From Phormidesmis sp. (GTDB lineage Bacteria; Cyanobacteriota; Cyanobacteriia; Leptolyngbyales; Leptolyngbyaceae), in the NCBI GenBank assembly GCA_965248535.1, contig CBDFJR010000002.1:1344001-1408000 (forward strand): 64,000 nt of DNA, given 5' to 3'. A program made the position numbers and the translations under genes. The notes below the pieces were generated by a model, which searched no databases, was not told the origin of the DNA, and was given only the letters and a program-made list of their open reading frames with translations. Shown here one piece after another: positions 3,994 to 38,022 of this stretch (its first letter is position 1; every line of letters begins with the position of its first letter).

Positions 3994-5604
3994 ATGAATG
4001 AAGCTGAAAATTCAAACAATAACCCCCCCTTGTTTGAGTCCATTCCTCAGTCTGTCTCTGAGCCAGCCGAGCCAGACTCTCTTGCAGAAGAGTGGATAAC
4101 GGTCGATTTCCCCCAGGCGCTGCCCGTTGACGAAATTCCTCACGAGGAGCCTGTCCTGCCTGATCTTAGCCACTCGCTGCCAGAGTTGAGCGATCGCGTC
4201 TGCGACCTAGATCAGCAAAATCAAGACCTTCGCCGCCAAAAAGCCGATCTGATTAGCGTCTTAGAAAAGCAAGACCAAGAGTTTCACGCCCAGATTGCAA
4301 ACTTAAATAAAGCATTGCAACAAACTCGCAACATGCTGCGGTTAGAGCGACGAAACTGGGAGTCACAATCGCGACAAATTAAGCAGCGATCGCAGGAGCA
4401 AACCACCCACATTGCTCAACAAACCCAAGAATTAACCACCACTCAAGAGCAAGTGGTCAAGCTCTTTAGAGAGCTAGAAAACGCTCAACAAACGGCTCAA
4501 CGCCAGCAAATCTTGGTCGAAACGTTAACCACCCAGCTAGAAGTCAGTCAAGAACAAGTCGCCCAGCTAGAGCGCGAGTGTGCCATCACTCAACAGCGAT
4601 ATAGTGAGCAGACGCAGCACGTCCATCAGACCGACCATGCTTGCAAAGATCTGCGATCGCGCCTCTTGCGTCAGCAGCGCTACACCATGCAGTTCAAGGC
4701 GGCTTTAGAAAAGTGTCTCGATGTTCCGGCGGCTAAATCGGCTGATGGGTTAGAAACCCTGTTGACAGAGACCAGCGTCACTCGGCCCGATCGGCTTAAT
4801 CCGGCGGCTGATTTGTTAGCCCCTAAAGCTCAACCCGTGCAGCCCTGGTCAGCGCAGCCCGACTTTCCTGACCTCGACCCGCTGCCAGAGCCTCACTCAG
4901 TCTACATTCCGTCTCCTTGGGATGACGACTCTGAGATAGCCCCTGAAGACTTGATCACTCAAACCCCAGAGGTTGACAGCATTGTTTGCGACGCGATCGC
5001 TGATCAGCCCTTTGAGCCTCCGGTGGTGGTTGCGACCCAGCGCGAACCCTTGGTTGTGAGCTACACCATTCAGCGATCGCCAGAGACTTCAGACGCGCTG
5101 ATTCCTGAAATTCAGCTATTTACGCCCGATCTGACCCCTGAGATCATGGGAGAGACTCCAGACGAAACCGCACAAGCGATCGCATTCCCCGCTTTTCTGG
5201 AGATTGAATCAGATCTAGAACAAAAACTTGACCACGCCCTACAAGCCTTTGAGCTTCCGGTTGAGCCGTTTGCCTCTGGCTCTGAGCTTGCAGACTTGCT
5301 GCAAAATGATCAAGAGATTCTCAACGAGATTCACGCGATCGCAGAGTCGGCCGACCCAGCCCCAGATCTTGACTTATCTGAGCCTGAAGCCGTTGATCTG
5401 GCAGCCAATTCTGCGTCTGCGTCGCCTTTCATCACCCTGCAATCAATGACCTCCCGCGAGTTAACTCGGCAGAGTGTTTCAGCAAGTGACAACCCCCTTT
5501 TGGTGAATGGGCCCTCTCCGATCGTCTACCCGCTGCGATCGTCTAAAAAGCTCAAATCTCTGGCTGCCGTTGACTTACCCTCGTTTCCACGTCCCGGAAA
5601 GTAG
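3994..5604 (+). CDS. hypothetical protein with long coiled coil and acidic/Pro-rich tail
   Basis: 536-aa ORF; Q/E/L heptad-rich region around aa 65-240; C-terminal 'PSPIVYP...SLAAVDLPSFPR'. Confidence 0.75.
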   Translation: MNEAENSNNNPPLFESIPQSVSEPAEPDSLAEEWITVDFPQALPVDEIPHEEPVLPDLSHSLPELSDRVCDLDQQNQDLRRQKADLISVLEKQDQEFHAQIANLNKALQQTRNMLRLERRNWESQSRQIKQRSQEQTTHIAQQTQELTTTQEQVVKLFRELENAQQTAQRQQILVETLTTQLEVSQEQVAQLERECAITQQRYSEQTQHVHQTDHACKDLRSRLLRQQRYTMQFKAALEKCLDVPAAKSADGLETLLTETSVTRPDRLNPAADLLAPKAQPVQPWSAQPDFPDLDPLPEPHSVYIPSPWDDDSEIAPEDLITQTPEVDSIVCDAIADQPFEPPVVVATQREPLVVSYTIQRSPETSDALIPEIQLFTPDLTPEIMGETPDETAQAIAFPAFLEIESDLEQKLDHALQAFELPVEPFASGSELADLLQNDQEILNEIHAIAESADPAPDLDLSEPEAVDLAANSASASPFITLQSMTSRELTRQSVSASDNPLLVNGPSPIVYPLRSSKKLKSLAAVDLPSFPRPGK

Positions 5605-23635: not shown

Positions 23636-24544
23636 TCATTTTTCTACTGGAGACCCGTAGCTAATCTGATCAGATTGATAAGTCGGCGGCTCTACGTGAA
23701 TCATCACTCTCACAGGGCTATATTTTTCAGCTAATCGGGCTTCTACTTCCTCGGTGATGTCGTGAGCCGTCTGCACATCCCCCACTTCGACGATCAGGTG
23801 CATCTCAATAAAAGACTGCCGACCCACCACCCCTCGCGATGCGATGTCGTGACAGTTCAGCACGCCAGGCACCTGCATCGCCACTTCATAAATGGCTTCT
23901 GGCGCGATCGCCATCTCATCTACTAGAGAAGGCAGATTTTGTTTGAGCACTGACCACCCACTCCAAAACACCATCAGCGCTACGGGAAAAGACAGCGCCA
24001 GATCCAGCCACTGCCAGTTAAACGCCCAAACGCCAACTAAACCTGCCAAAACGCTGATCGTTACCCAGACATCACTCATCGTGTGCTGGGCATCGGCAAT
24101 CAAAATCGGACTGCCCACTCGCTGCCCTTCGGCGCGCTCGTAGTAGGTGACAAAAATATTGATCCCCAACACGATCAGCAATAGCCACAGTTCCCCGGCC
24201 GAGATGTGAATCGGCTTACCCGTGCCCATCAACCGCTCGATCGCGCCCTGCAAAATCTCAAAACACGCAATCCCCAAAAAGGCAGCGATGCCTAAAGCAC
24301 TCACAGCTTCAAACTTTTGGTGCCCATAGGGATGATCGCGATCGGGCATCGGAGACGAAAATCGGCTGGCAATCAATCCCAGAATGTTGCTAGCGCTGTC
24401 GGTTAAACTATGCAGCGCATCTGCTAACAAACTTAATGAACCCGTTGTCAATCCCACAAAGGCCTTGAGTCCCAAGACAAACAGATTGAGCAATAGGGTG
24501 ATGATTAACACTTTGCGAACCGTCGATCGATTATCTACTATCAC
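23636..24544 (-). CDS. cation diffusion facilitator (FieF/CDF) transporter
   Basis: SLLADALHSLTD, HPYGH.KFE, ADAQHTMSD and IHVEP motifs. Confidence 0.92.
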   Translation of the reverse strand: MIVDNRSTVRKVLIITLLLNLFVLGLKAFVGLTTGSLSLLADALHSLTDSASNILGLIASRFSSPMPDRDHPYGHQKFEAVSALGIAAFLGIACFEILQGAIERLMGTGKPIHISAGELWLLLIVLGINIFVTYYERAEGQRVGSPILIADAQHTMSDVWVTISVLAGLVGVWAFNWQWLDLALSFPVALMVFWSGWSVLKQNLPSLVDEMAIAPEAIYEVAMQVPGVLNCHDIASRGVVGRQSFIEMHLIVEVGDVQTAHDITEEVEARLAEKYSPVRVMIHVEPPTYQSDQISYGSPVEK

Positions 24545-25902: not shown

Positions 25903-27006
25903 GTGGATCTAGCGACCACCTTAAAAAGTCAAACCCCTCGCAATCATGTGCGAGAAATCGGCATCAACGGCAACCATTGGTATGCGATCGCTTGGTCTGC
26001 TGATCTCAAACCGACAAAAATTCTGACCGCGACCATTTGGCAGCAGTCAATCGCCTTTTATCGCGATCGCCACAACCAGATTCAAGCCGTCGAAAATGTT
26101 TGTCCCCACAAAGGCGTTTCGTTTGATCAGGGCAAAGTTGCAGAGAATGCGATCGTGTGCCCCTATCACGGCTGGGAGTTTAACGGGCAGGGCGAATGCG
26201 TCAATATTCCCTACTTTCCGCCCGATCAAAAGCTGCCTTGTGTCAAGATGCAGAGCTTCCCCGTGCAGGAAAAATATGGATTAATTTGGGTCTTTCCGGG
26301 TGAGCCTGCCCTGGCAGCCACGCAGCCCCTAATCGACATTGCAGAATACGACGACCCCCACTGGCTGCTGATTCCCATTGAGGCAGACTTTAAAGCCCAC
26401 TTCTCAATCTGCAATGAAAACACGATGGATGTGTTTCACGGTCATCTTCACAAAAAGCTACAAGGCTGGTTTGATCCCGTGCTGCTCAAGCTTCGAGAAA
26501 CTGAAACCTCGGTCGAAGCTAGCTATCAACTCTCTTACACAGGCTTTGTGACTCAACTGTTGGGGCTGAGTCAATCAGCCAATCGAGTCACCACCAAAGT
26601 CATTTCGGTGAGCTATCGCTATCCTCACTACATCAACTATCTTCCAGGGCTTTCATCGCTCTATTTGATGCGGTTGCCCATCGCACCTCAAAAAAGCCGA
26701 TCGTTCTCGCTTTTGTTTCTTAAGTTAGGATTGCCTCCGTGGTTGCTCAACATCCTGCGTCCCGTTTTGCAGCCTCTCATTCTAAATCTGCTGCTGCTGC
26801 CCTTTCTCAGACAAGATATTGAAATGATCGAGAGCGAACAGGAGAATTATGCAAAAAATCCTCAGCGGCGCTATGTCGAGGTTAACCCCGCGATCGTCGC
26901 CGTGCAGCGCCTGATATTACGTCAATATGAGCAGTTTATCCGCTATTCGCCCCACCCTGAAAGCCCGTTAGACTCGCCCGTTCCGCAGGAAGCATCGACC
27001 CAATAG
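25903..27006 (+). CDS. Rieske non-heme iron oxygenase alpha subunit
   Basis: CPHKG...CPYHGW Rieske ligands; EN.MD.FHG.LH and 'QD' mononuclear-iron motifs. Confidence 0.9.
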   Translation: MDLATTLKSQTPRNHVREIGINGNHWYAIAWSADLKPTKILTATIWQQSIAFYRDRHNQIQAVENVCPHKGVSFDQGKVAENAIVCPYHGWEFNGQGECVNIPYFPPDQKLPCVKMQSFPVQEKYGLIWVFPGEPALAATQPLIDIAEYDDPHWLLIPIEADFKAHFSICNENTMDVFHGHLHKKLQGWFDPVLLKLRETETSVEASYQLSYTGFVTQLLGLSQSANRVTTKVISVSYRYPHYINYLPGLSSLYLMRLPIAPQKSRSFSLLFLKLGLPPWLLNILRPVLQPLILNLLLLPFLRQDIEMIESEQENYAKNPQRRYVEVNPAIVAVQRLILRQYEQFIRYSPHPESPLDSPVPQEASTQ

Positions 27007-27177
27007 CAGCACAAAACTTTTTGGGATTCCTTCTGAGTTGTTGCAAAATGTAGTCTTTACGATCACACGATTGCGGCGCGATCGCATTACATTACAGAAG
27101 TAGTCATCGGGAATAGGGCCTAACGCTCTACTCAGATGCCCCGATGGTCTCTCATCCACCTTTATGAGACTCAACCC

Positions 27178-27681
27178 ATGTCATTTTTAAACTGGCATAG
27201 AGGCGCTGTTGCCTTAATGCTGTCTGTCGTTTTGCTGCTCACAGGCTGTCAGCCCAAAGCCCCCTCACAGTTTGCTCAAGCCCAGCAAGACAGCAGCCAA
27301 AAAGGAGTCACCGCCGTTGCCAAAGATGCGACCCAAGGCAGCGAGTTTAACAAATTTTTCCCGCGGGCTGCCGATGGCTACGCCAGAGCCTTTAGCCAAG
27401 AAAAGAAAGGATTTGCTGAGGCAAAACTCAATAAAGACGGCAAAAACATCGCTATGCTGTCGATTAACGACACAACAGGCATCCCAGGATCTGCTCAAAA
27501 ATATGCGGCGGCAACCGAAAAAATTGCGGGGTATCCTGCCACCAATCTTGGCAATCAAACGGCTGTTTTAGTGGGCAAATATCAGGTCAAAGTTCAGTCT
27601 CGCGATCCGTCGTTTGAAAAGACCGATCGCCAAGCCTGGCTGCAAAAGTTTGACCTCAAAGGGCTAGAAAAACTCAACTAG
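27178..27681 (+). CDS. hypothetical lipoprotein
   Basis: Lipobox LTGC; QEKKGFAEAKL; YQVKVQSRDPSF. Confidence 0.75.
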   Translation: MSFLNWHRGAVALMLSVVLLLTGCQPKAPSQFAQAQQDSSQKGVTAVAKDATQGSEFNKFFPRAADGYARAFSQEKKGFAEAKLNKDGKNIAMLSINDTTGIPGSAQKYAAATEKIAGYPATNLGNQTAVLVGKYQVKVQSRDPSFEKTDRQAWLQKFDLKGLEKLN

Positions 27682-27715
27682 CCACAGCACCCACCCTCAC
27701 TATCAGGAATTTTTC

Positions 27716-28603
27716 ATGAGCAAATCCATTTTTGAACTCGTCGATGAGCTTCCTACCGGAGGGACGACCGTCACCGCCCTCAATGCCCTAGATTTTGTGA
27801 TTCCGGGGCAGTGGCAAAACTTGACAGGCTTCACCAACACGATTAGAGCCGTCACGGGCGAATCTGATGAGGCCATGATTCAAGCGATCGGAGACCGAGC
27901 CGTCTATCTTTACAATGACGAATCCCAGGGCTATCAGCGCGCCCTGTGGCTCTATCAAACCGTCGATAGTGCCGCAGGGGCCTTGGGTGCAGCCGCGATG
28001 GCCAACAAAATTGGTCAAGACATTTCATTTTTAGGGTTTTTAGGCAATCTCACCCCCAAGCCCGAAAAAGTTCAGAGTCTCGATCTGTGCATCAAACTAG
28101 TCGTCGAACTGGTGGCATTCTGCCAGATCAACGGCATCCCCGGTGACAGCATTGGCGACTTTTTAGGTGCATTGGGCGACTACAGCGGCGAGTCATTGAT
28201 GCGAATGGCGGCATTAGTCTGCTTTGACGGCATCATTCCTCTAGGAGCCGACTTTATCAATATGGGGCTATCCACCATTCAACAGACCACCCCCGATGAT
28301 TTGCAGCACAACCAGAGCTTTAAGAGCGTCAGCAGCCTGATTCCGGGCGGCAACCCGGCTGGGCAACTGGGGTTTATCACTCAGAGCTTTGATTCAGTTA
28401 AAGGCTGGATGGGCGATTTTGTCAGTTCTCGTAATTTGACTCAAGACGGTCTGTTGAGCCATGTCAAACAATATGTTGACATTTCGGCTGACAAACTTGA
28501 TTATGTCGGCGCGTTCCTCGATGTAGCCGTCAAATACTACACTCATACTGGAACGCAAACGCTGGCTCGTCGTTTAGTCGAGCGGGCAGTCGCAGAAATT
28601 TGA
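27716..28603 (+). CDS. conserved hypothetical protein
   Basis: 295-aa ORF with AGGA RBS, 34 bp after the lipoprotein gene. Confidence 0.75.
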   Translation: MSKSIFELVDELPTGGTTVTALNALDFVIPGQWQNLTGFTNTIRAVTGESDEAMIQAIGDRAVYLYNDESQGYQRALWLYQTVDSAAGALGAAAMANKIGQDISFLGFLGNLTPKPEKVQSLDLCIKLVVELVAFCQINGIPGDSIGDFLGALGDYSGESLMRMAALVCFDGIIPLGADFINMGLSTIQQTTPDDLQHNQSFKSVSSLIPGGNPAGQLGFITQSFDSVKGWMGDFVSSRNLTQDGLLSHVKQYVDISADKLDYVGAFLDVAVKYYTHTGTQTLARRLVERAVAEI

Positions 28604-28622: not shown

Positions 28623-28689
28623 GCAAAAAAGACCGTCTGTAACGGGTAGCACCTGGTTGAGTGCCTACCCACAGACCGTCTTTTTTTGC
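28623..28689. terminator. long imperfect hairpin with A/T tails
   Basis: GCAAAAAAGACCGTCTGT..GGGTAGCAC / GTGCCTACCCACAGACCGTCTTTTTTTGC. Confidence 0.6.
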
Positions 28690-28900
28690 AATCAGTGCCT
28701 TTGAACCCACTTAGTTAGAGTGCTTACTGATAAGCTGGATTCAGACAATTGACGAATGGACGCATGTTCTTATATTTCAGCTTCAGATCGACGAGTTAGC
28801 GAAATCCTACGCAAGCCAGATATAGGGTTAGATTTAGTTGCGACGCACTCGGCGCAGCTTTATAGAATCGCCGTCTAGAAAAAGGTGAGAGGAGTTTACT

Positions 28901-30178
28901 GTGCAAGTTGTTAAGGAGTACGTGCGGCGCTGGTACGAAAGCGGCTTAGATCCCGATGAGTACATCTGCCACAAACGCCAGGGAAATTTTGTCGAGATCG
29001 AGGAGGCTGAAACGGGGAAACGACGCACCGTTCTCACCTTTTGCACCAACGATGTTTTGGGGCTGACTCAAGAAGAATCCGTTAAACAAGCGGCCGTTGA
29101 TGCCATCTGGCAATATGGAACGTCTAACAGTTCTACCTCGGTTCTGAGCGGTCGCATTGATCTACATCGCCAGCTAGAAAATGAGATTTCGGCGTTTAAG
29201 CATCTGCCTCACACTCAGCTTTTTTTAAATGCGTGGATGGCAGTGCAGGCGTTGATGGATGCGTTTTGCCATTTGGCGATTCCCGTTTCGGGGTTTCAAA
29301 ACGATCGTGAGACGCTAATTTTGACCGATGTTCTCAATCATGGCTGCATTGTCACGGCGGTTGCCAATGCCGGAACTCGCTCTGGCAAGATGTTTGGGCA
29401 CAGTCCGAGGGTGCGGGTGCGGGCTTATCGCCATTGTGATGTTGAAGATTTAGCGCGCAAGCTGAAGCGCTATGCTCAACCTAACGATCGTATCCTGGTT
29501 ATTTCTGATGCGGTGTTCTCAATGGATGGGGACATTGCGCCGCTGCCGGAGATGATTGAGGTGCTGGCTAACTATCCTGATTCGGTCTTGGTGATGGATG
29601 AGGCCCACGCCAGTGGCGCGATCGGGGCAACAGGTCGCGGCATTTATGAACATTTTGGACTCACGCCACAAGACGCGATCGATCGCGGCATTACGCCCTT
29701 GATCATGACAACATTCTCTAAGTTTGCGGCATCGGCAGGCGCGGCCATCAGCACCCATGTGCCTGAACTCAAGCCTTTGTTGAATGTGTCACCGACCTCA
29801 ATCGGGACGATCTCGTTGCCTGCTCCGACAACGGCGGCGGCCTTGGAGAGCATTCGCATCGTCCGTCAAGAACCCGATCGAGTCAAGCTTCTGCAAGAAA
29901 ACACGCGATATCTGCGATCGCGGCTTGAGGCTCACGATTTTGCAGCGATCGGAGAAACCAATGTTGTGCCAGTTTTGCTACCACCCGAAATCAATCCTAA
30001 AGTCTATGCAAGAGAATTGCTAGATTATGGAACGTGGGTGTCTCCGATTTGGTTTATCGCCAAACCTCGGATTCGCATTACCGTCAACACGCTGCACACC
30101 AAAGAAGAAATGGATCGGTTGGTGACAGGCATGGTGAAGATGCGCGATTTGGTTTATAAGCCCACGATTAGCGCCTAA
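28901..30178 (+). CDS. PLP-dependent alpha-oxoamine synthase (serine palmitoyltransferase/BioF family), divergent
   Basis: NDVLGL, D.LNHGCI, YRHCD, DAVFSMDGDIAPL, DEAHASG and PLP lysine in TTFSK; GTG start with GAGGAG RBS. Confidence 0.85.
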   Translation: MQVVKEYVRRWYESGLDPDEYICHKRQGNFVEIEEAETGKRRTVLTFCTNDVLGLTQEESVKQAAVDAIWQYGTSNSSTSVLSGRIDLHRQLENEISAFKHLPHTQLFLNAWMAVQALMDAFCHLAIPVSGFQNDRETLILTDVLNHGCIVTAVANAGTRSGKMFGHSPRVRVRAYRHCDVEDLARKLKRYAQPNDRILVISDAVFSMDGDIAPLPEMIEVLANYPDSVLVMDEAHASGAIGATGRGIYEHFGLTPQDAIDRGITPLIMTTFSKFAASAGAAISTHVPELKPLLNVSPTSIGTISLPAPTTAAALESIRIVRQEPDRVKLLQENTRYLRSRLEAHDFAAIGETNVVPVLLPPEINPKVYARELLDYGTWVSPIWFIAKPRIRITVNTLHTKEEMDRLVTGMVKMRDLVYKPTISA

Positions 30179-30721
30179 CCTCAATTTAATCGCTTTAGTT
30201 AGCTGAGAGCGATCGTTCTTTTTAAGGGAGCGATCGTTCTTTTTATGGGCTGGTTATTAGAGGGGTTACTTCACCTTACAGAGATATATTACCTAGATAA
30301 GTCGGCATCCTGGCAGAGGTCGATAGACTCCCAAACGTCAGTTGCAGGCTAGCAAATTAGTAAGGGTTAAGTTCACAGTTTCTGAGCAAAATTCACCAGA
30401 ACTTTACGAATATCTCAGCGCAATCACATACTATTAGTTCAACTTAGACCTAGCCAGTTTAATTTAATTAAAGCCTTTTCAAAAAAGCTTCTAACATTAC
30501 CAACATTTAAAAGGAAGAGTGTCCACGATCGTGGGTCGTCAATCCTTTATAGGAGCACAGAACAGGTGCAGCGATGATTCTTGTAGGGGGACGATCTGCC
30601 TCGCCCTATAGGAATTGGACTGCTGGTTTTAACCTGCACCGTGAACGGGTATCACCTTACTACACAGTTCACGAAAAGGCGAAGGAGTGTTTTTCTACCC
30701 TTTTTTAACAGGAGTTTTTCG

Positions 30722-31609
30722 ATGGATGCTGTTGAGCAATCAAAGCTACAGCCATTTCTGACTTTAAATCATCAAGTTAATCTTAAAAGCGATATTCCAG
30801 AAGCCCCAATTGTCAGCACACCTGAAATCCAAGCAAATAGCTTTTATTTCAGCAACTCAACTTGGGCGAAGACATATTTTGATGCTTGTCATCGCGATGC
30901 TGCCTTTAAAGAGCGGTGGGTTGCCGCGGTGGGTAGTTGGGACGATAAGATCGTGGTGGATGTAGGTTGTGGCCCAGGCAACCTCTATGCAAACCTAGGC
31001 GGGAAACCAGCGGTGCTCATTGGAGTAGATGTAGCACGTGGGTCTCTGGAAATGGCCCAGCAGATTGGGTATACGCCATTGTTGGCAGATGCCCACGACA
31101 TGCCACTGATTACAGAGTTTGCTGATATTGTGGCCGTCAATGCGTCATTGCACCATTGCATCGACATGTCTCAGGTATTGGCAGAGTCAGCCCGGTTGGT
31201 GCGCCCCGGTGGAGTCTTGATTGTTGACCACGATCCACAACTGACAGCTTGGAACTATAAAGGATTGGGACTATTGCTCTACAAAGTCCGTCTGGGAGTG
31301 ATCTATCGGTTTTTCCTTCGTAACTTAGCGGTTCCTAATGAAGAACGAACCCGTGCACTTGCAACCGAGGTGCATCATCAGCCCGGTCACGGTGTGACGA
31401 AGAATTTGTTTCATGAAATCCTAGAACCGATGGGCTTTGAGGTGAAGGTCTACCCTCATAACAATACGATCGGGGCTGACGCTCTAAAAGGGATTTGCGG
31501 CAACCCACCCCATTGGCGATATCGTCTCGGACAATTGCTTTCTGGCATTAATCCCTATTCTTCGGAGGCAGCATTGTCTCTAATGTGCGTGGCGGTTCGC
31601 AAGCCTTGA
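30722..31609 (+). CDS. class I SAM-dependent methyltransferase
   Basis: VDVGCGPG, GVD, ADAHDMP, LHH and LVRPGG motifs; AGGAG RBS before ATG 30722. Confidence 0.88.
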   Translation: MDAVEQSKLQPFLTLNHQVNLKSDIPEAPIVSTPEIQANSFYFSNSTWAKTYFDACHRDAAFKERWVAAVGSWDDKIVVDVGCGPGNLYANLGGKPAVLIGVDVARGSLEMAQQIGYTPLLADAHDMPLITEFADIVAVNASLHHCIDMSQVLAESARLVRPGGVLIVDHDPQLTAWNYKGLGLLLYKVRLGVIYRFFLRNLAVPNEERTRALATEVHHQPGHGVTKNLFHEILEPMGFEVKVYPHNNTIGADALKGICGNPPHWRYRLGQLLSGINPYSSEAALSLMCVAVRKP

Positions 31610-31830
31610 TCAAAAGATTGCTCATGACACCTTCATAAGAGATCAGAGTTTCAGGAATTTTCTGCACCACGACCGGGGCTGATCTGAGCGATCGCCTCAA
31701 ACTAATCGGTTGGCTGTCTTCGTATCTGAACAATTTGTTTCAAAACTAGCTTAATCAAGCCCTCACCTGGAGAAATGCTGATATATTTCTCCATAACGCT
31801 TAGTTTGCACCTGTGGGAGGCAATCCGCCC

Positions 31831-32997
31831 ATGAATCCCTCTCTTGATAAAAGTTTTGGAGGAGCCAGATCAGCAGCTTTTCAGATCATCTCGGTCACTA
31901 GCGCAACAGAGCAAGCGATGTTTTTAGAGGTGCCCGCGATCGTATATGCCCACGATCGCTATTGGGTGTCTCCACTTCGCAGTGACGTTGCCAAAAAGTT
32001 TGAGTCTAGTAATCCTTTTTTTCAATACGGCAGGCTTCAGCAGTTTGTTGCGATTCGCGGGGCAAAACCCATCGGTCGCATTGTGGCGGCAGTCAACGAT
32101 CGGTTGGTCGATCGCGAAGGCAAACCCATCGGCATTTTTGGTTTTTTTGAGTGTGTTGAAGACTTTGAGGTTGCCCAATCTCTTTTTGGTGCTGCCGCTG
32201 ACTGGCTAAGAGCGCAGGGAATGACCGAAGTCAGAGGCCCGATCGATCTTTCAACTCACAATAATTGCCTGTTTTTAGTAGATGGCTTTGACTCGTCGCC
32301 CATGGTGATGATGCCTTACAATCCTGCTTACTATCCTCAGTTTTTAGAACGAGACGGCTGGCACAAAGCCAAAGACGCTTATGCCTATAACTTTCTGCTT
32401 GATCAACCCCTCTCTCCAGAATTTGAAAAAGGCTACAAAATTGCCTGCAAATCTGGGGTTAACTTTCGACCCTTGAGAACCAAAGGCGAAGGATTTGAGC
32501 AAGACGCGATCGGTCTCTATAATCTGTTTACCAAGGCCTTTTCTGATAACTGGAGTTCTACCCCTCGCACTCAAGCAGAGTTTTTAGAAGAGGCAAAATC
32601 GCTGCAAAGTTTGGTCGATCCTGATGTGTTTCCGATCGCTGAATACAACGGTGAAATGATCGGGTTTTGGATGGGGTTGCCGGACTACAACATTCCCCTC
32701 AAACACGTTAACGGTAAGCTGAATTGGTTGGGAATTCTCAAGTTTCTCTGGCATCGTCGCCAAATCGATCAAGGGCGAGTGATTGCGATCTGTTCGCTTC
32801 CAGAATTTCGCCGCAAAATGGTTCCTCTGGCGCTGATTTATTTGGGCATGAATGGCGGAATTCAAAAGGGAAAACCTTACAAACGAGCCGAATTATCTTG
32901 GGTTTACGAAGATAATTTTGCTTCCCGTAAATTGATCGAAGCGTCGGGTGGCAAAATCTATAAAACCTATCGAATGTATGAAAAAAGTCTAGTTTAA
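31831..32997 (+). CDS. YghO/bCerS-like tandem GNAT-fold acyltransferase (bacterial ceramide synthase family)
   Basis: 'P..VY..D..WV.PL', NPFF, GRI.A, G.FGFFEC, 'WLR.QG...VRGP', LVDGFD..P..MMPYNP.YY, LPDYN, AELSWV.EDN and K.YR.YEK motifs. Confidence 0.75.
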   Translation: MNPSLDKSFGGARSAAFQIISVTSATEQAMFLEVPAIVYAHDRYWVSPLRSDVAKKFESSNPFFQYGRLQQFVAIRGAKPIGRIVAAVNDRLVDREGKPIGIFGFFECVEDFEVAQSLFGAAADWLRAQGMTEVRGPIDLSTHNNCLFLVDGFDSSPMVMMPYNPAYYPQFLERDGWHKAKDAYAYNFLLDQPLSPEFEKGYKIACKSGVNFRPLRTKGEGFEQDAIGLYNLFTKAFSDNWSSTPRTQAEFLEEAKSLQSLVDPDVFPIAEYNGEMIGFWMGLPDYNIPLKHVNGKLNWLGILKFLWHRRQIDQGRVIAICSLPEFRRKMVPLALIYLGMNGGIQKGKPYKRAELSWVYEDNFASRKLIEASGGKIYKTYRMYEKSLV

Positions 32998-33025
32998 GTC
33001 TCTATAAAAAATCGGAACTTTTTCA

Positions 33026-33985
33026 ATGAAAGCATTAGTAACCGGGGCTAACGGCTTTACTGGGTCTCATTTAGTCAAAGCGCTTGAAAAGCGAGGCGAT
33101 GCTGTGGTGGGGTTGGTGAGACGATCCAGCGACTTATCGCGATTAGACAACACCGCGATTGAACTAGTCTATGGAGACATCACCGATCGCGCTGCCCTGC
33201 AACAAGCCATGAGTCAAGTTGATACCGTTTTTCACACAGCCGCCTACGTCGAACTCGGTTTAGTCGATGCCGCACGAATGGAACAGGTCAACGTTCAAGG
33301 AACGCGCACCGTGCTGGAAGTTGCCCAAGCTGCGGGAGTTTCTAAAATGATTTATTGCAGCACGATCGGGGTTTTTGGCGACACCCAAGGCAAAGTCATT
33401 GACGAAACCTTCGAGCGGATTCAAAAAGATTTTTCGTCTGCCTACGATCGCACCAAATACAACGCCCAACAACTCGTCAATCAAGCGGCGGCTAGCGGGT
33501 TTCCGGTCATAAGCGTGATGCCTTCCGGCATTTTTGGACTGGATGATCCACATTTTATGCCCGTCCTCAATACCTTTCTTAAAAGACGGCTAAAAGTTTG
33601 GGCAGGCGGACAAAGAATCACAGGCATCGTTCATGTCGATGATTTAGCAAAAGCGATGATATTGGCAGCCGATCGGGGTCAACCTGGCGAACATTACATT
33701 ATCTCGTCAGGCGATTTATCAACTCGTGAAATGTTTGAGATTTTTAGTCGAGAAACCGGAATCTCTGCCCCGGCTGACGCGCCCGAACCACTAGTTCGCA
33801 CCGTTGGCGCAGTCTTAGATCTCATTGGCCGCACCTTTTCGTGGCAGCCTCCGATCGACCGAGAACGAGTGCATTATCTCTACGATCGCTGCGTCCGCGT
33901 CGATGCTGCCAAGGCAAAACGAGAACTTGGATGGAACCCTCGCTCTATTGAAGCCACCCTCAAAGAACTAGTCCAACAGCCTTGA
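33026..33985 (+). CDS. NAD(P)-dependent extended SDR (epimerase/reductase, HpnA/DFR-like)
   Basis: TGANGFTG, HTAA, YCST, catalytic YDRTK and VHVDDLA; 28 bp after the previous gene. Confidence 0.9.
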   Translation: MKALVTGANGFTGSHLVKALEKRGDAVVGLVRRSSDLSRLDNTAIELVYGDITDRAALQQAMSQVDTVFHTAAYVELGLVDAARMEQVNVQGTRTVLEVAQAAGVSKMIYCSTIGVFGDTQGKVIDETFERIQKDFSSAYDRTKYNAQQLVNQAAASGFPVISVMPSGIFGLDDPHFMPVLNTFLKRRLKVWAGGQRITGIVHVDDLAKAMILAADRGQPGEHYIISSGDLSTREMFEIFSRETGISAPADAPEPLVRTVGAVLDLIGRTFSWQPPIDRERVHYLYDRCVRVDAAKAKRELGWNPRSIEATLKELVQQP

Positions 33986-34001
33986 GATAAAAGAATCCTA
34001 T

Positions 34002-34033
34002 AAAAAAGGCTCCGCGGTCGCGGAGCCTTTTTT
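34002..34033. terminator. bidirectional intrinsic terminator
   Basis: AAAAAAGGCTCCGCG-GT-CGCGGAGCCTTTTTT between convergent genes. Confidence 0.9.
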
Positions 34034-34056
34034 GTCGATTTCAGAAGAAGCTTCGA

Positions 34057-35955
34057 TTAGAAGGTGAAGGTCGTTCTCACCGTGCCAATCACAACATCAT
34101 CGTTTGTGGTATTCTGACCGGGGTTAATCACCCAGATGATGCCAGGCGTGATTGAGATGTTGTCATTCAACTGATACTTATAGAACCCTTCTAGGTGAAG
34201 AGGAATCGCGTTGCCCACACCCGCTGCTCTTTGAGCAGCAGACGGATTAGACACATAAGGCTCTGCCCCTGCCATAAAGCCCAAGAGGTTACCTTTCTTG
34301 CCAAAATCAGGGAAGGCTAGACCAGCGCCATAAGTCCAGATTTTGCGAGAACCGTTGCCATCATCAACAAAATCAGCGTTGATGTAAGACGCAAAGCCAT
34401 TCAACACGATCTGGGGGCTGAGTCTAAAAGCGACTTCTGCTCCATAAGCGTTGACCTTAGCTGGGGTAATTGCGCCGAGTACGCTCGTGCCTTGGTTAGC
34501 CAGCAACGTGCCCGAAGCGCCAGTGCCGCCGTTTCCAGTGTCAAAGATCGCCGATCGTCTATAGGCATTGACGTAGGTCAAGCCAAGACTTAGAGCATTA
34601 CTAGCTTTGAAGGTCACTTGAGCCAGCGCAGAATAACTGCCGTTAAACAACCCATTTTTATCAGCAGGACTGTTTGCACTAGCGACCACTGCACCCGCAG
34701 AGGTTGAGTTGTCAGCCAAATAGCCACCGCTAATCGTAAAGGCTGGGGTCAATTCAAAGTTCACGCCTGCACCACTGCCACCACCAATCAAATAGATGGG
34801 GTTGCGTTGAGCAAAAACCGACAGAGGGCCTGTGCCGCCGTCAAACGCATCTAGAGCAGGGCTGACTGTGGGCGCATAGTCATAGTGAAGACCGCCTACA
34901 GCCGGGACGTAGACTCTCACCTTGTCAGTGATGTTAAAGAAATAGGCGACCCAATCAGCAAAAATTTTGTTGCCAACCGTGTTTCCAAAGTTAAAGGTCT
35001 GAAGCCCTTCAGCGTTTACGCCACCCGGTCGGTTGGGATTGTTTAGGTTGAAAGCGCCTGCATTACCTGCGGCAAGACGAGTAACCAACAAATCTTTGCC
35101 TGTAAAGCTGGTGTTGAGCGCCAGACGAACCCTGTCTTGAAACACCGTGTTGTTGCCACCAGAGTTTCTAACGCCAAACTCATCAGTGACTGCAAAAATA
35201 ACCTCGCCTGCAAGCTTGGTTGTGGTTGAAAACTGCTGCTTTTCAAGGGTTGCCGTCCGAGCTTCTAGAGCATCAACACGACCACGCAGGGTTGCCAACT
35301 CAGCCGCAAACTCTTCTTGCAGCTTTTGCAGGGTTGCCAAGTCTTCTTTCTTTACCAAATCGGCTGTGGCAGCCGCGATTAGCTCATTGACGCGATCGAG
35401 ACAAGCGTTCAAACCAGCCGCAAACTCATAGCGACTTAAAGCGCGGTTGCCGCGATAGGTTTTGTCGGGGTAGCCCGCGATGCAGCCATAGCGCTCAACC
35501 AAAGACTGCAAGGCTTGGAATGCCCAGTCAGTCGGCCGCACGTCAGACAGTTGAGAAACCGATGTGACTTGCCCGATCGCTGCCCCACCTTTTCCTTCCC
35601 GGCTGTAGCGATTGATTTGGTCGATTGAGTTGAGATCAGCACTCTGGTCTGCCGGAGAAGACACTTGAGCAACTTGAACCGGGGCAATCTTAGAAAGCTT
35701 TAGCTCGGTAGATTTTTCAGAAATCTCTTTGGCTTGAGTGGTCTTCGAGGTGGCAACTTCAGCAACCTGAGCCGCTTTGACTTCAACAGACGGTGCGACA
35801 AGCGCCTCAATTGCTTGAGTTTTCGCTGCGATCGCGACCGGAGATGTCGGAACAACGACTGACTTTTCTGCGGCGATCGCCCCAGAAGAAACCGCTAGAG
35901 CTACCCCAAAAAGCGCTGGGCTGACCACTAACGAATTCAACAGAAATTTAAACAT
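34057..35955 (-). CDS. cyanobacterial outer-membrane porin (SLH + OprB-type barrel)
   Basis: VTSVSQLSDVRPTDWAFQALQSLVERYGCI, QFSTTTKL, C-terminal RTTFTF; GAGGAG RBS. Confidence 0.95.
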   Translation of the reverse strand: MFKFLLNSLVVSPALFGVALAVSSGAIAAEKSVVVPTSPVAIAAKTQAIEALVAPSVEVKAAQVAEVATSKTTQAKEISEKSTELKLSKIAPVQVAQVSSPADQSADLNSIDQINRYSREGKGGAAIGQVTSVSQLSDVRPTDWAFQALQSLVERYGCIAGYPDKTYRGNRALSRYEFAAGLNACLDRVNELIAAATADLVKKEDLATLQKLQEEFAAELATLRGRVDALEARTATLEKQQFSTTTKLAGEVIFAVTDEFGVRNSGGNNTVFQDRVRLALNTSFTGKDLLVTRLAAGNAGAFNLNNPNRPGGVNAEGLQTFNFGNTVGNKIFADWVAYFFNITDKVRVYVPAVGGLHYDYAPTVSPALDAFDGGTGPLSVFAQRNPIYLIGGGSGAGVNFELTPAFTISGGYLADNSTSAGAVVASANSPADKNGLFNGSYSALAQVTFKASNALSLGLTYVNAYRRSAIFDTGNGGTGASGTLLANQGTSVLGAITPAKVNAYGAEVAFRLSPQIVLNGFASYINADFVDDGNGSRKIWTYGAGLAFPDFGKKGNLLGFMAGAEPYVSNPSAAQRAAGVGNAIPLHLEGFYKYQLNDNISITPGIIWVINPGQNTTNDDVVIGTVRTTFTF

Positions 35956-36387
35956 GAATATTCTCCTCACACCTGGTTTATAGAGCGACTGTTTGAGCCT
36001 TCTACCTGTCTAGTCTAGACTTGTAACCACTTCTGCAAACTACAAAACCTACGCCAGCCTATCACTCAGGCAGTTGAGTTATGTATGCCAAATTACAACT
36101 AGAGAGCGACTTTGGAAATAATAGCAGATGTTTGCCAAGAGTGTCTGGCTGTTGTTGGGATCGATCACAGCAAAAAATCCCTTGCAAATCTCCTCCTATA
36201 AATCTCCCAGAGGTTAGCCAACTATCACCTCTATCGAAAGGAATACATACTTTTAATCAAGACCGCTAATTCTCTGCAATGCTGGGAATTGGGGGTTAAA
36301 CCAGCCAGAATCTCTCAGGATCTAGCACTGCTCTAGGTCGATATATTCGACTAGCTCCCATCGAAGATCCTCCCTTTTAAAAACTAT

Positions 36388-36790: not shown

Positions 36791-37849
36791 TTAGAGAGCG
36801 TTACCGCGAGGCAGAACCTCTTCAGGGAATACAAATTTTTCGTGGGGCTGGTCCTGAGAAGCCATCCAAGCGCGGATGCCCTCGTTCAACAAAATGTTCT
36901 TCGTGTAGAACGTTTCAAATTCCGGGTCTTCCGCCGCCCGCAGTTCTTGGGAGACGAAATCATACGCCCGCAGGTTTAGCGCCAAACCAACGATGCCCAC
37001 CGATGCCATCCACAACCCCGTCACCGGGACAAACAGCATGAAAAAGTGCAGCCACCGCTTGTTGGAGAAGGCAATCCCAAAAATCTGTGACCAGAAACGG
37101 TTTGCCGTCACCATCGAGTAGGTTTCTTCACTCTGGGTGGGGTTGAACGCCCGGAAGGTGTTGGCGTTTTCGCCGTCTTCAAACAGGGTGTTCTCCACCG
37201 TCGCGCCGTGGATGGCGCACAGCAGCGCGCCGCCCAAGATGCCCGCCACGCCCATCATGTGGAAGGGGTTGAGGGTGAAGTTGTGAAACCCTTGGATGAA
37301 CAGAATGAATCGGAAGATGCCCGCTACGCCGAAGCTCGGAGCGAAAAACCAACTCGACTGTCCCAACGGGTACATCAAGAAGACGGAGACGAAGACGGCG
37401 ATCGGGCCGGTGAAGGCGATGGCGTTGTAGGGACGGATGCCGACTAAGCGGGCAATCTCGAGCTGCCGCAGACAGAAGCCAATCAAGCCGAAGGCTCCGT
37501 GCAGGGCGACAAATGCCCACAGACCGCCGATTTGGAACCAGCGAGTCAGGTCGCCTTGGGCTTCAGGGCCCCACAACAGCAGCAGGGAGTGCCCCATGCT
37601 GTCGGCGGGGGTGGAGACGGCGACGGTGAGAAAGTTGGCTCCTTCGAGGTAGGAGGAAGCCAAGCCGTGGGTGTACCACGAGGTGACGAAGGTGGTGCCA
37701 GTCATCCAGCCGCCCACGGCCAAAAAGGCGCAGGGGAACAGCAGGAGGCCTGACCAGCCGATGAAGACGAAGCGATCGCGTTTCAACCAGTCGTCGAGTG
37801 CGTCAAATACGCCTCGGCTTGGTTGCGCGCGCCCTACTGCTATGGTCAT
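36791..37849 (-). CDS. psbD: photosystem II D2 protein, stand-alone copy (no psbC downstream)
   Basis: MTIAVGR...[11 protein letters not shown]...[11 protein letters not shown]; 352 aa; Y160, H189 and H197 retained. Confidence 0.99.
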
Positions 37850-38022
37850 AACGCAAATCTCCAAAGATTATGAGAACGGAAGACAAACCATCAAACTTGC
37901 TACCAGCAATCGCTCCGATTGGAGTTGACTCGGCCGCCGGGCAAGCATGATTTACTTTTCTTCACTTATTCCATCGATTATAGAGGCATGTTCTTCAAAA
38001 ATTCCAGGTTTGCACCCGCAAA

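Follow-up and report, generated by a model that had tools for sequence, protein, structure and literature searches.

Does a cyanobacterium that carries an alpha-oxoamine synthase (AOS) gene beside genes for a ceramide synthase-like acyltransferase and a reductase make a sphingolipid? The locus raising this question lies in a stretch of 64,000 nucleotides (nt) from the filamentous cyanobacterium Phormidesmis sp. (GenBank assembly GCA_965248535.1, contig CBDFJR010000002.1, positions 1,344,001 to 1,408,000 of the forward strand), which we refer to as the window and whose own numbering is used below. To our knowledge, cyanobacteria are not accepted as sphingolipid producers. An initial annotation described four co-oriented genes, encoding an AOS, a methyltransferase, an acyltransferase, and a short-chain dehydrogenase/reductase (SDR), as a candidate pathway for a ceramide or ceramide-like lipid. 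All four open reading frames (ORFs) are indeed on the plus strand, and the Pfam and NCBIfam models with which we assigned window ORFs to families identify an AOS-type class I/II aminotransferase, a class I S-adenosylmethionine (SAM) methyltransferase, a weak GNAT match, and an extended SDR. We found that the window contains a conserved cyanobacterial module consisting of a Rieske oxygenase, the AOS, an acyltransferase of the bCerS/YghO family, and the extended SDR, and that in this genome the module is interrupted by two lineage-specific insertions. The gene set probably yields an undescribed sphingolipid-like lipid.

The evidence that these genes belong together comes from a survey of 201 genomes of the phylum, including the window genome (G000). 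Orthologs of the AOS (70 to 83% identity), the acyltransferase (at least 59%), and the SDR (59 to 74%) occur in an identical set of 16 genomes, and at these thresholds each of the three is absent from the other 185. This identical occurrence persists even when the SDR gene is more than 1 Mb away. The gene order in carriers is AOS, acyltransferase, SDR; the AOS gene adjoins the acyltransferase gene in 12 of the 15 other carriers and is unlinked in three, and the SDR gene is immediately 3′ of the acyltransferase gene in six, frequently with a 4-bp overlap, within 1 kb in seven, within 7 kb in eight, and elsewhere in seven. Because the three genes share both occurrence and adjacency, we consider the acyltransferase to be linked in function with both the AOS and the SDR. 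The initial annotation had proposed a survey of synteny across cyanobacteria as a check, and for these three genes the survey shows co-conservation.

A fourth member of the module was overlooked in the initial annotation. Upstream of the AOS gene is a gene for a Rieske nonheme iron oxygenase whose CxH...CxxH ([2Fe-2S]) and D-x2-H-x-H-x-H (mononuclear iron) motifs are intact, and whose C-terminal stretch is hydrophobic. Orthologs with 54 to 60% identity are present in 10 of the 15 carriers, every time within 1 kb upstream of the AOS gene, and nine ORFs scanned beside AOS genes in relatives have Rieske and VanA_C domains. None of the 185 noncarrier genomes has a Rieske ortholog, and they give either paralogs with 35 to 38% identity or no match at all. 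Because the orthologs are confined to carriers of the other three genes and adjoin the AOS gene, we count the Rieske gene in the module. The solved chains closest to the Rieske protein are those of the monooxygenases SxtT/SxtDIOX (95 bits) and DdmC. The window enzyme is likely a C-H hydroxylase, and the similarity to Sdm and Sxt enzymes says no more than that.

The acyltransferase is assigned to the bCerS/YghO family, and every feature examined here agrees with this assignment. It aligns over its full length (392 columns) with Escherichia coli YghO at 28% identity (E = 1e-51), and because the alignment begins at the Met encoded at 31831, this start is favored over that of the longest ORF. In uropathogenic E. 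coli (UPEC), yghO is accompanied by genes encoding a fatty acyl-AMP ligase, a protein of the NAD epimerase family, an acyl carrier protein (ACP), Spt, and LptG/LptF paralogs. The available portion of PMC9386255 gives yghO (ECD_02850) and Caulobacter CC_1154 as the acyl-coenzyme A (acyl-CoA) N-acyltransferase of dihydroceramide synthesis, and because it groups the two, we regard YghO as the E. coli homolog of bCerS. The comparison with bCerS runs through YghO, as grouped in that portion of PMC9386255, and through a Phenylobacterium locus (L083), not through the Caulobacter bCerS sequence. The family numbers 6468 representatives at E ≤ 0.001 and 940 at E ≤ 1e-30, and includes three natural AOS-GNAT fusions (P0175, P0202, and P0225), the GNAT parts of which are 33 to 39% identical to the window acyltransferase and the AOS parts 36 to 43% identical to E. 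coli Spt. Other fusions in the family join GNAT with an AMP-binding domain (P0172), with a second GNAT (P0122), or with PilZ (P0138 and P0196), the last of these hinting at control by c-di-GMP in some lineages.

Two sets of loci show the genomic company that this family keeps. Among 80 loci from named genomes, found with a YghO-led alignment and examined within 10 kb, 53 include a Spt-type AOS gene, 50 a CerR-type SDR gene, 51 an ACP gene, 59 a ligase gene, and 45 an LptG paralog. The second set comprises 80 metagenome loci from the noncyanobacterial clade closest to the cyanobacterial acyltransferases; an AOS gene is immediately upstream of the acyltransferase gene in 55 and an SDR gene is beside it in 42, and matches to ACP, ligase, Lpt, Rieske, major facilitator superfamily (MFS), or methyltransferase genes are absent from the whole set. 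In a quick tree of the acyltransferases, the cyanobacterial clade together with two representatives has a stem of 1.16, an ordinary length for the family. An AlphaFold model (predicted local distance difference test score [pLDDT], 92.7) has a tandem GNAT architecture, and its nearest solved folds are amine-acylating tandem GNATs, namely, the clavulanate-pathway protein 2wpw, MshD, and a glucosamine N-acetyltransferase; a search of solved structures by sequence gave no match. The full-length homology to YghO and the family context bear out the YghO/bCerS-type label given initially. We also note that in three genomes of the same phylum (G109, G112, and G124; families f24 and f30), which may represent nonphotosynthetic lineages, acyltransferase relatives with 27 to 35% identity (G109:C14:506498-507538, G112:C116:79258-80301, and G124:C33:36307-37350) are within open frames of 930 to 1247 amino acids (aa). 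These long frames may be fusions, and the best AOS matches of those genomes are not adjacent to them.

The AOS has the residues expected of a working enzyme of its superfamily. His147 (in NH), Asp233 and His236 (in DEAH), Lys274 (in TFSK), and Arg392 are conserved, although these are superfamily-wide features and not specific to Spt; those in NH, DEAH, and TFSK match catalytic residues in alignments with E. coli Spt, the BioF of the same genome, and the Sphingobacterium serine palmitoyltransferase (SPT). The catalytic His, Ser, Asp, His, Thr, Ser, Lys, and Arg are retained in all 16 members of the AOS clade. The intact pyridoxal 5′-phosphate (PLP) residues reported initially thus match those of the reference enzymes.

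What might such a set of enzymes make? We lean, with moderate confidence, toward a ceramide-like N-acyl amino-alcohol lipid produced by the AOS, the bCerS relative, the SDR, and the Rieske oxygenase. In this pathway a 2-amino-3-keto compound would be formed from an amino acid and an acyl thioester through condensation by the AOS, the bCerS-like enzyme would N-acylate the new amine, the SDR would reduce the 3-keto group, and the Rieske oxygenase, where present, would hydroxylate or desaturate the product. Observed directly are the homologies, the shared set of carrier genomes, the arrangement of the genes, the intactness of the catalytic motifs, and the fusion proteins of relatives, whereas the individual reactions, the sequence in which they occur, the chain lengths, and the assignment of the product as a lipid are inferred. 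The suggestion of a ceramide or a ceramide-like amino lipid therefore holds in the latter wording, whereas a strict serine-derived ceramide is unproven.

Several observations weigh against a ceramide-like product, beginning with the identity of the AOS. The enzyme is well below the Spt cut-offs (176 bits versus 640 for NF047600, 160 versus 500 for NF047599, and 119 versus 670 for NF047603), whereas reference Spts score 588 to 668 on NF047599. Its top NCBIfam score is with TIGR00858 (bioF), at 232 bits against a cut-off of 426; ordinary AOS enzymes score higher than this even on models of other families. Its identity is 28% with E. coli Spt and 31% with the BioF of its own genome, so that Spt is not the nearer of the two; with a metagenome Spt-like AOS as the query, the genome's own BioF (274 bits) outscores the window AOS (133 bits). 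In a tree of 40 sequences with references labeled by curated cut-offs, the cyanobacterial enzymes form a clade (support, 100/100) on a stem of 3.67 substitutions per column, outside the Spt-type clade (94/84) that contains Spt, the fusion AOS, and three unassigned AOS. The cyanobacterial clade is separated from BioF, Kbl, and HemA only by a branch with 83/87 support, and an approximately unbiased (AU) test does not reject its grouping with BioF (p = 0.206), although the best tree shows no such grouping. The initial annotation had offered grouping with BioF as a test of its reading, and the outcome is divided: the AOS is not the housekeeping BioF, as the true BioF is encoded elsewhere in the genome (C2:634979-636064; 459 bits versus the cut-off of 426), but a BioF grouping is allowed by the AU test. 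We conclude from these comparisons that the AOS is neither BioF nor a canonical Spt by sequence, and forms a deep clade of its own.

The residue changes in this clade point in the same direction. In the Sphingobacterium SPT, the sections of PMC10196870 available to us list Tyr54, Gly80-Ser81-Arg82, and Met271-Phe272 as substrate-contact positions, and these are altered in all 16 clade members. NDYLG becomes ND[VI]LG, replacing Tyr54 with Val or Ile, whereas Tyr is kept in all 24 of the other aligned AOS; Gly80-Ser81-Arg82 becomes Ser-[Cys/Thr]-[Ser/Glu], and Met271-Phe272 becomes Ile-Gly. The same 16 enzymes have NHGC in place of NHAS and a 4-residue deletion before the catalytic Arg. In SPT, several of the changed positions touch the amino acid substrate or belong to the lining of the acyl site. 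The AOS is probably active with a substrate preference different from that of SPT, and because the substrate-contact positions are changed, its amino acid may be one other than serine, and its acyl pocket differs. As a statement of family membership, the description "Spt-like" does not stand: the enzyme is below the Spt cut-offs, is outside the Spt clade, and has changed contact residues.

The SDR, the acyl supply, and the sampling add to these concerns. The TGANGFTG (TGxxGxxG) and YDRTK (YxxxK) motifs of the SDR are intact, its best models are HpnA-like (209 bits versus a cut-off of 368) and SdmB-like (146 versus 600), and its best structure is PDB 3wj7. It is only 21% identical to the SDR of the E. 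coli CerR-type locus, and 27 to 32% identical to CerR-like SDRs of the metagenome clusters. A second extended SDR of the genome (C5:666743-667711), 33% identical to the window SDR, is the genome's best match to CerR queries: a CerR-like query gives it 114 bits versus 110.5 for the window SDR, and with the E. coli CerR-type protein as the query it is the only SDR found. The window SDR has no visible signal peptide, its Rossmann motif starting at residue 6, whereas Caulobacter CerR is reported to be periplasmic in the available text of PMC11087976. Together, the 21% identity and the queries that match the second SDR as well or better mean that the SDR is not a demonstrable CerR ortholog, as had been proposed, and its role in the module rests on co-occurrence and adjacency and not on orthology. 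With regard to acyl supply, whole-genome tblastn with E. coli sphingolipid AcpR, AasR (fatty acyl-AMP ligase), and the Lpt paralogs gave no match at E ≤ 1e-6, which agrees with the earlier remark that the window has no ACP or ligase gene, with the proviso that not every ORF in the 64 kb was annotated. Given that this search turned up no genes of the AcpR, AasR, or Lpt type, housekeeping acyl-ACP is the likely donor, which we infer from the established fatty acid metabolism of cyanobacteria. Finally, the 15 other carriers represent 9 family codes and 12 genus codes, and are kin rather than independent samples.

A bolder version of the ceramide-like lipid reading, which we put forward tentatively as a possibility short of an expectation, is that a substantial minority of filamentous cyanobacteria make undescribed sphingolipid-like lipids by combining a new AOS specificity with membrane-associated Rieske oxygenation. 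The new specificity would be either for an amino acid other than serine, alanine, or glycine, or for an unusual acyl donor such as acyl-ACP. If so, these organisms would make hydroxylated "ceramides" by a route unrelated to the eukaryotic di-iron hydroxylases.

The strongest rival is that the module makes a short-chain or nonmembrane N-acyl amino-ketone or amino-alcohol, serving as an exported signal or secondary metabolite rather than a structural lipid, and we consider this unlikely, if still a serious contender. A divergent MFS transporter gene adjoins the module in at least five carriers (all five candidate ORFs scanned), as expected for export, but the window genome has no ortholog of it. 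The remodeled pocket of the AOS, the use of a small alkaloid by the nearest solved Rieske enzymes (SxtT/SxtDIOX), the production of quorum signals by other AOS enzymes of the CqsA family, and the failure of whole-genome tblastn to find dedicated fatty acid activation genes would all suit a small exported product. On the other hand, those relatives of the acyltransferase that are characterized or defined by context handle long-chain lipids, the hydrophobic C-terminal stretch of the Rieske oxygenase would suit a membrane substrate, and AOS identities of 70 to 83% across nine families are more typical of a physiological function than of secondary metabolism.

A true Caulobacter-type ceramide, in which Spt joins serine with a long-chain acyl thioester, bCerS and CerR complete the pathway, and the product is methylated, seems to us quite improbable. 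It draws on the membership of the acyltransferase in the bCerS family, on the Sphingobacterium SPT being the best PDB sequence match to the AOS (139 bits), on the TFSK lysine motif that the AOS has in common with Spt-type enzymes, and on an AOS-acyltransferase order like that of Spt-type loci. Against it are the scores below three Spt cut-offs, the position outside the Spt-type clade, the altered contact residues, an SDR that is not a CerR ortholog, and the failure to find AcpR, AasR, or Lpt paralogs by whole-genome tblastn; furthermore, the methyltransferase segment is absent in all six matching same-genus relatives, and the gene was not found in 14 of the 15 carriers. That the genes are mere neighbors with no shared pathway (for example, a spare BioF/Kbl-type AOS beside a GNAT and an SDR acting on unrelated substrates) is very improbable, because, even though the AU test leaves a BioF affinity possible, a terminator-like hairpin follows the AOS gene, and the AOS and acyltransferase genes are unlinked in three of 15 carriers, the three genes occupy identical genome sets with the unlinked cases included, AOS-GNAT fusions exist in relatives, and the genome already has a BioF above the cut-off.

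The ceramide-like lipid reading, which we continue to favor, does not include the methyltransferase. The gene has an intact motif I (VVDVGCGPG) within an ORF (30641-31609; 322 aa) whose likely start is at 30719. It is present in just one of the 15 carriers, at a separate place in that genome. A search of seven same-genus genomes, six of which matched (the seventh is 65% complete), shows DNA similarity running through the AOS gene and the hairpin behind it and resuming in the acyltransferase gene, with a gap of ∼170 to 280 bp versus ∼1.6 kb in the window; the methyltransferase segment is missing from all six. By alignment, the insert occupies about 30294-31789, and GATATATT flanks it at 30281-30295 and 31776-31790. 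Because the gene is in 1 of 15 carriers and the segment is absent from six of six same-genus relatives, we conclude that the methyltransferase is a recent insert specific to the window genome, and is outside the module. The same evidence removes it from the pathway in which it had been placed initially, and the suggestion of a methylated product is without comparative support. At the same spot, the same-genus relative G205 has another insert (L203, ∼4690-4890), unlike this one, that is palindromic, ∼190 bp long, and bounded by long terminal inverted repeats, and the site just 3′ of the AOS hairpin resembles an insertion hot spot. Two other interpretations of the methyltransferase were considered and rejected. 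A BioC-like enzyme forming a bioF-bioC pair is at odds with its BioC score (42 versus a cut-off of 185), its location in an insert, and the presence of the true BioF elsewhere; a SxtA-like arrangement of methyltransferase, GNAT, and AOS for saxitoxin loading does not fit a GNAT of YghO type, a methyltransferase that is not conserved, and the absence of an ACP.

The other interruption lies between the Rieske and AOS genes, and consists of two ORFs, 27136-27681 (181 aa, lipoprotein-like, with a signal peptide and the lipobox LTGC) and 27716-28603 (295 aa), neither of which has a Pfam or NCBIfam match. Their DNA is kept beside the AOS gene by same-genus relatives and by some genera of the family, and not beyond that family; in G080 and the other carriers the two ORFs are not between the Rieske and AOS genes. 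They are probably not core to the module.

The layout of the locus is collected in Table 1. The three hairpins noted initially, at about 28650, 30205-30245, and 34015, all fold well beyond shuffled sequences, none of which folded equally well. The first spans 28625-28686 and has A and U runs at its flanks, the second spans 30205-30241 with a U run after it, and the third has a perfect bidirectional terminator shape; a simple scan for the terminator consensus listed only the 28625 hairpin of the three, and on the minus strand. The hairpin behind the AOS gene (30207-30246) consists of a tandem GAGCGATCGTTCTTTTT(A) and holds a HIP1-like core, GCGATCG. It is kept in same-genus relatives, being present in both of those aligned (G205 and G210), and because it is older than the insert, the AOS gene and the acyltransferase-SDR pair may be transcribed apart, even in relatives. 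The spacing given initially holds, with a 28-bp gap between the acyltransferase and SDR genes, and gaps of ∼540 and ∼220 bp on either side of the methyltransferase gene when counted from the ATG starts at 30719 and 31831; the longest ORFs give 462 bp (AOS to methyltransferase) and 203 bp (methyltransferase to acyltransferase) for these two gaps. The flanking genes are ordinary, and include the CDF zinc exporter gene Cdf31 (23636-24544; 538 bits versus a cut-off of 460), an SLH/OprB iron-uptake porin gene (34057-35970), and psbD (36791-37864).

Table 1. Coordinates of module genes, insertions, and hairpins in the window
Feature	Position	Strand	Evidence
Rieske nonheme iron oxygenase, accessory module member	25903..27006	+	Pfam Rieske, motifs, orthologs beside AOS
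Two interposed ORFs, probably not core	27136..28603	+	No Pfam/NCBIfam match
Terminator-like hairpin 5′ of AOS	28625..28692	+	-29.6 kcal/mol, z -6.3, then U run
AOS, core, 425 aa, deep cyanobacterial clade	28901..30178	+	
Hairpin and U run 3′ of AOS	30205..30246	+	Tandem 17-18-nt repeat, -22.7 kcal/mol, z -4.9
∼1.5-kb strain-specific insert with SAM methyltransferase	30294..31789	+	GATATATT at both ends
YghO/bCerS-family tandem-GNAT N-acyltransferase, core, 394 aa, likely start 31831	31813..32997	+	
Extended SDR, presumed keto-reductase, core, 319 aa	33026..33985	+	TGANGFTG, YDRTK
Two-way intrinsic terminator between SDR and convergent porin gene	34000..34035	strandless	-25.5 kcal/mol, z -6.3, A6/T6 flanks

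We found no paper describing this module among openly licensed PMC articles and bioRxiv, the literature searched. Within that literature, papers that contain both bCerS and cyanobacteria name cyanobacteria merely in a reference, as does the main text of PMC11334938 in the part available. According to the available sections of PMC8895605, Nostoc punctiforme has only BioF and no sphingolipids were found in it, and the two cyanobacteria with reported ceramides, Moorea and Scytonema, have extra AOS genes with no role assigned to them there. The module is a concrete, conserved genetic candidate for a cyanobacterial sphingolipid-like lipid. Its AOS would extend a much-studied enzyme family to a new substrate specificity, and a product lipid could become a biomarker of filamentous cyanobacteria from benthic and terrestrial habitats.

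How does the module compare with systems already described? The SdmA/SdmB sterol demethylase pair likewise combines a Rieske protein (SdmA model, 227 bits) with a 3-beta-hydroxysteroid dehydrogenase-like SDR (SdmB, 146; HpnA, 209), but none of the window scores comes near its cut-off (600 for SdmA, 600 for SdmB, and 368 for HpnA), and the neighborhood contains neither sterol nor saxitoxin genes. BioF shares the fold and PLP chemistry of the window AOS, but it is the latter that has the clade-specific residue changes and that co-occurs with and adjoins a bCerS relative. A closer parallel is offered by the minimal SDR-AOS-GNAT clusters and AOS-GNAT fusions of uncultured bacteria (compare the idea of a "Spt-like clade B" in the available part of PMC11334938), which have the same three-gene layout, no ACP or ligase, and GNAT domains 33 to 39% identical to the window acyltransferase. 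Their AOS, however, is of the Spt type, with 34 to 43% identity to E. coli Spt and with the Tyr and G-S-R residues kept, whereas the window AOS has 28% identity and has lost both; Rieske matches are found in none of their 80 loci.

The Spt-bCerS-CerR systems of Caulobacter crescentus and of E. coli B and UPEC (spt-acpR-epi-aasR-yghO) use the same enzyme types: an AOS, a tandem-GNAT YghO/bCerS protein, and an NAD(P) epimerase-family SDR. The module differs from them in that its AOS belongs to a separate deep clade with altered substrate-contact residues, its SDR is not orthologous to CerR and is without a signal peptide, its genome has no matches to AcpR, AasR, or the LptF/G paralogs, and a Rieske oxygenase has been added. 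As in many uncultured bacteria, the AOS gene is immediately upstream of the acyltransferase gene. The module thus appears as a new variation on the known logic of bacterial ceramide synthesis.

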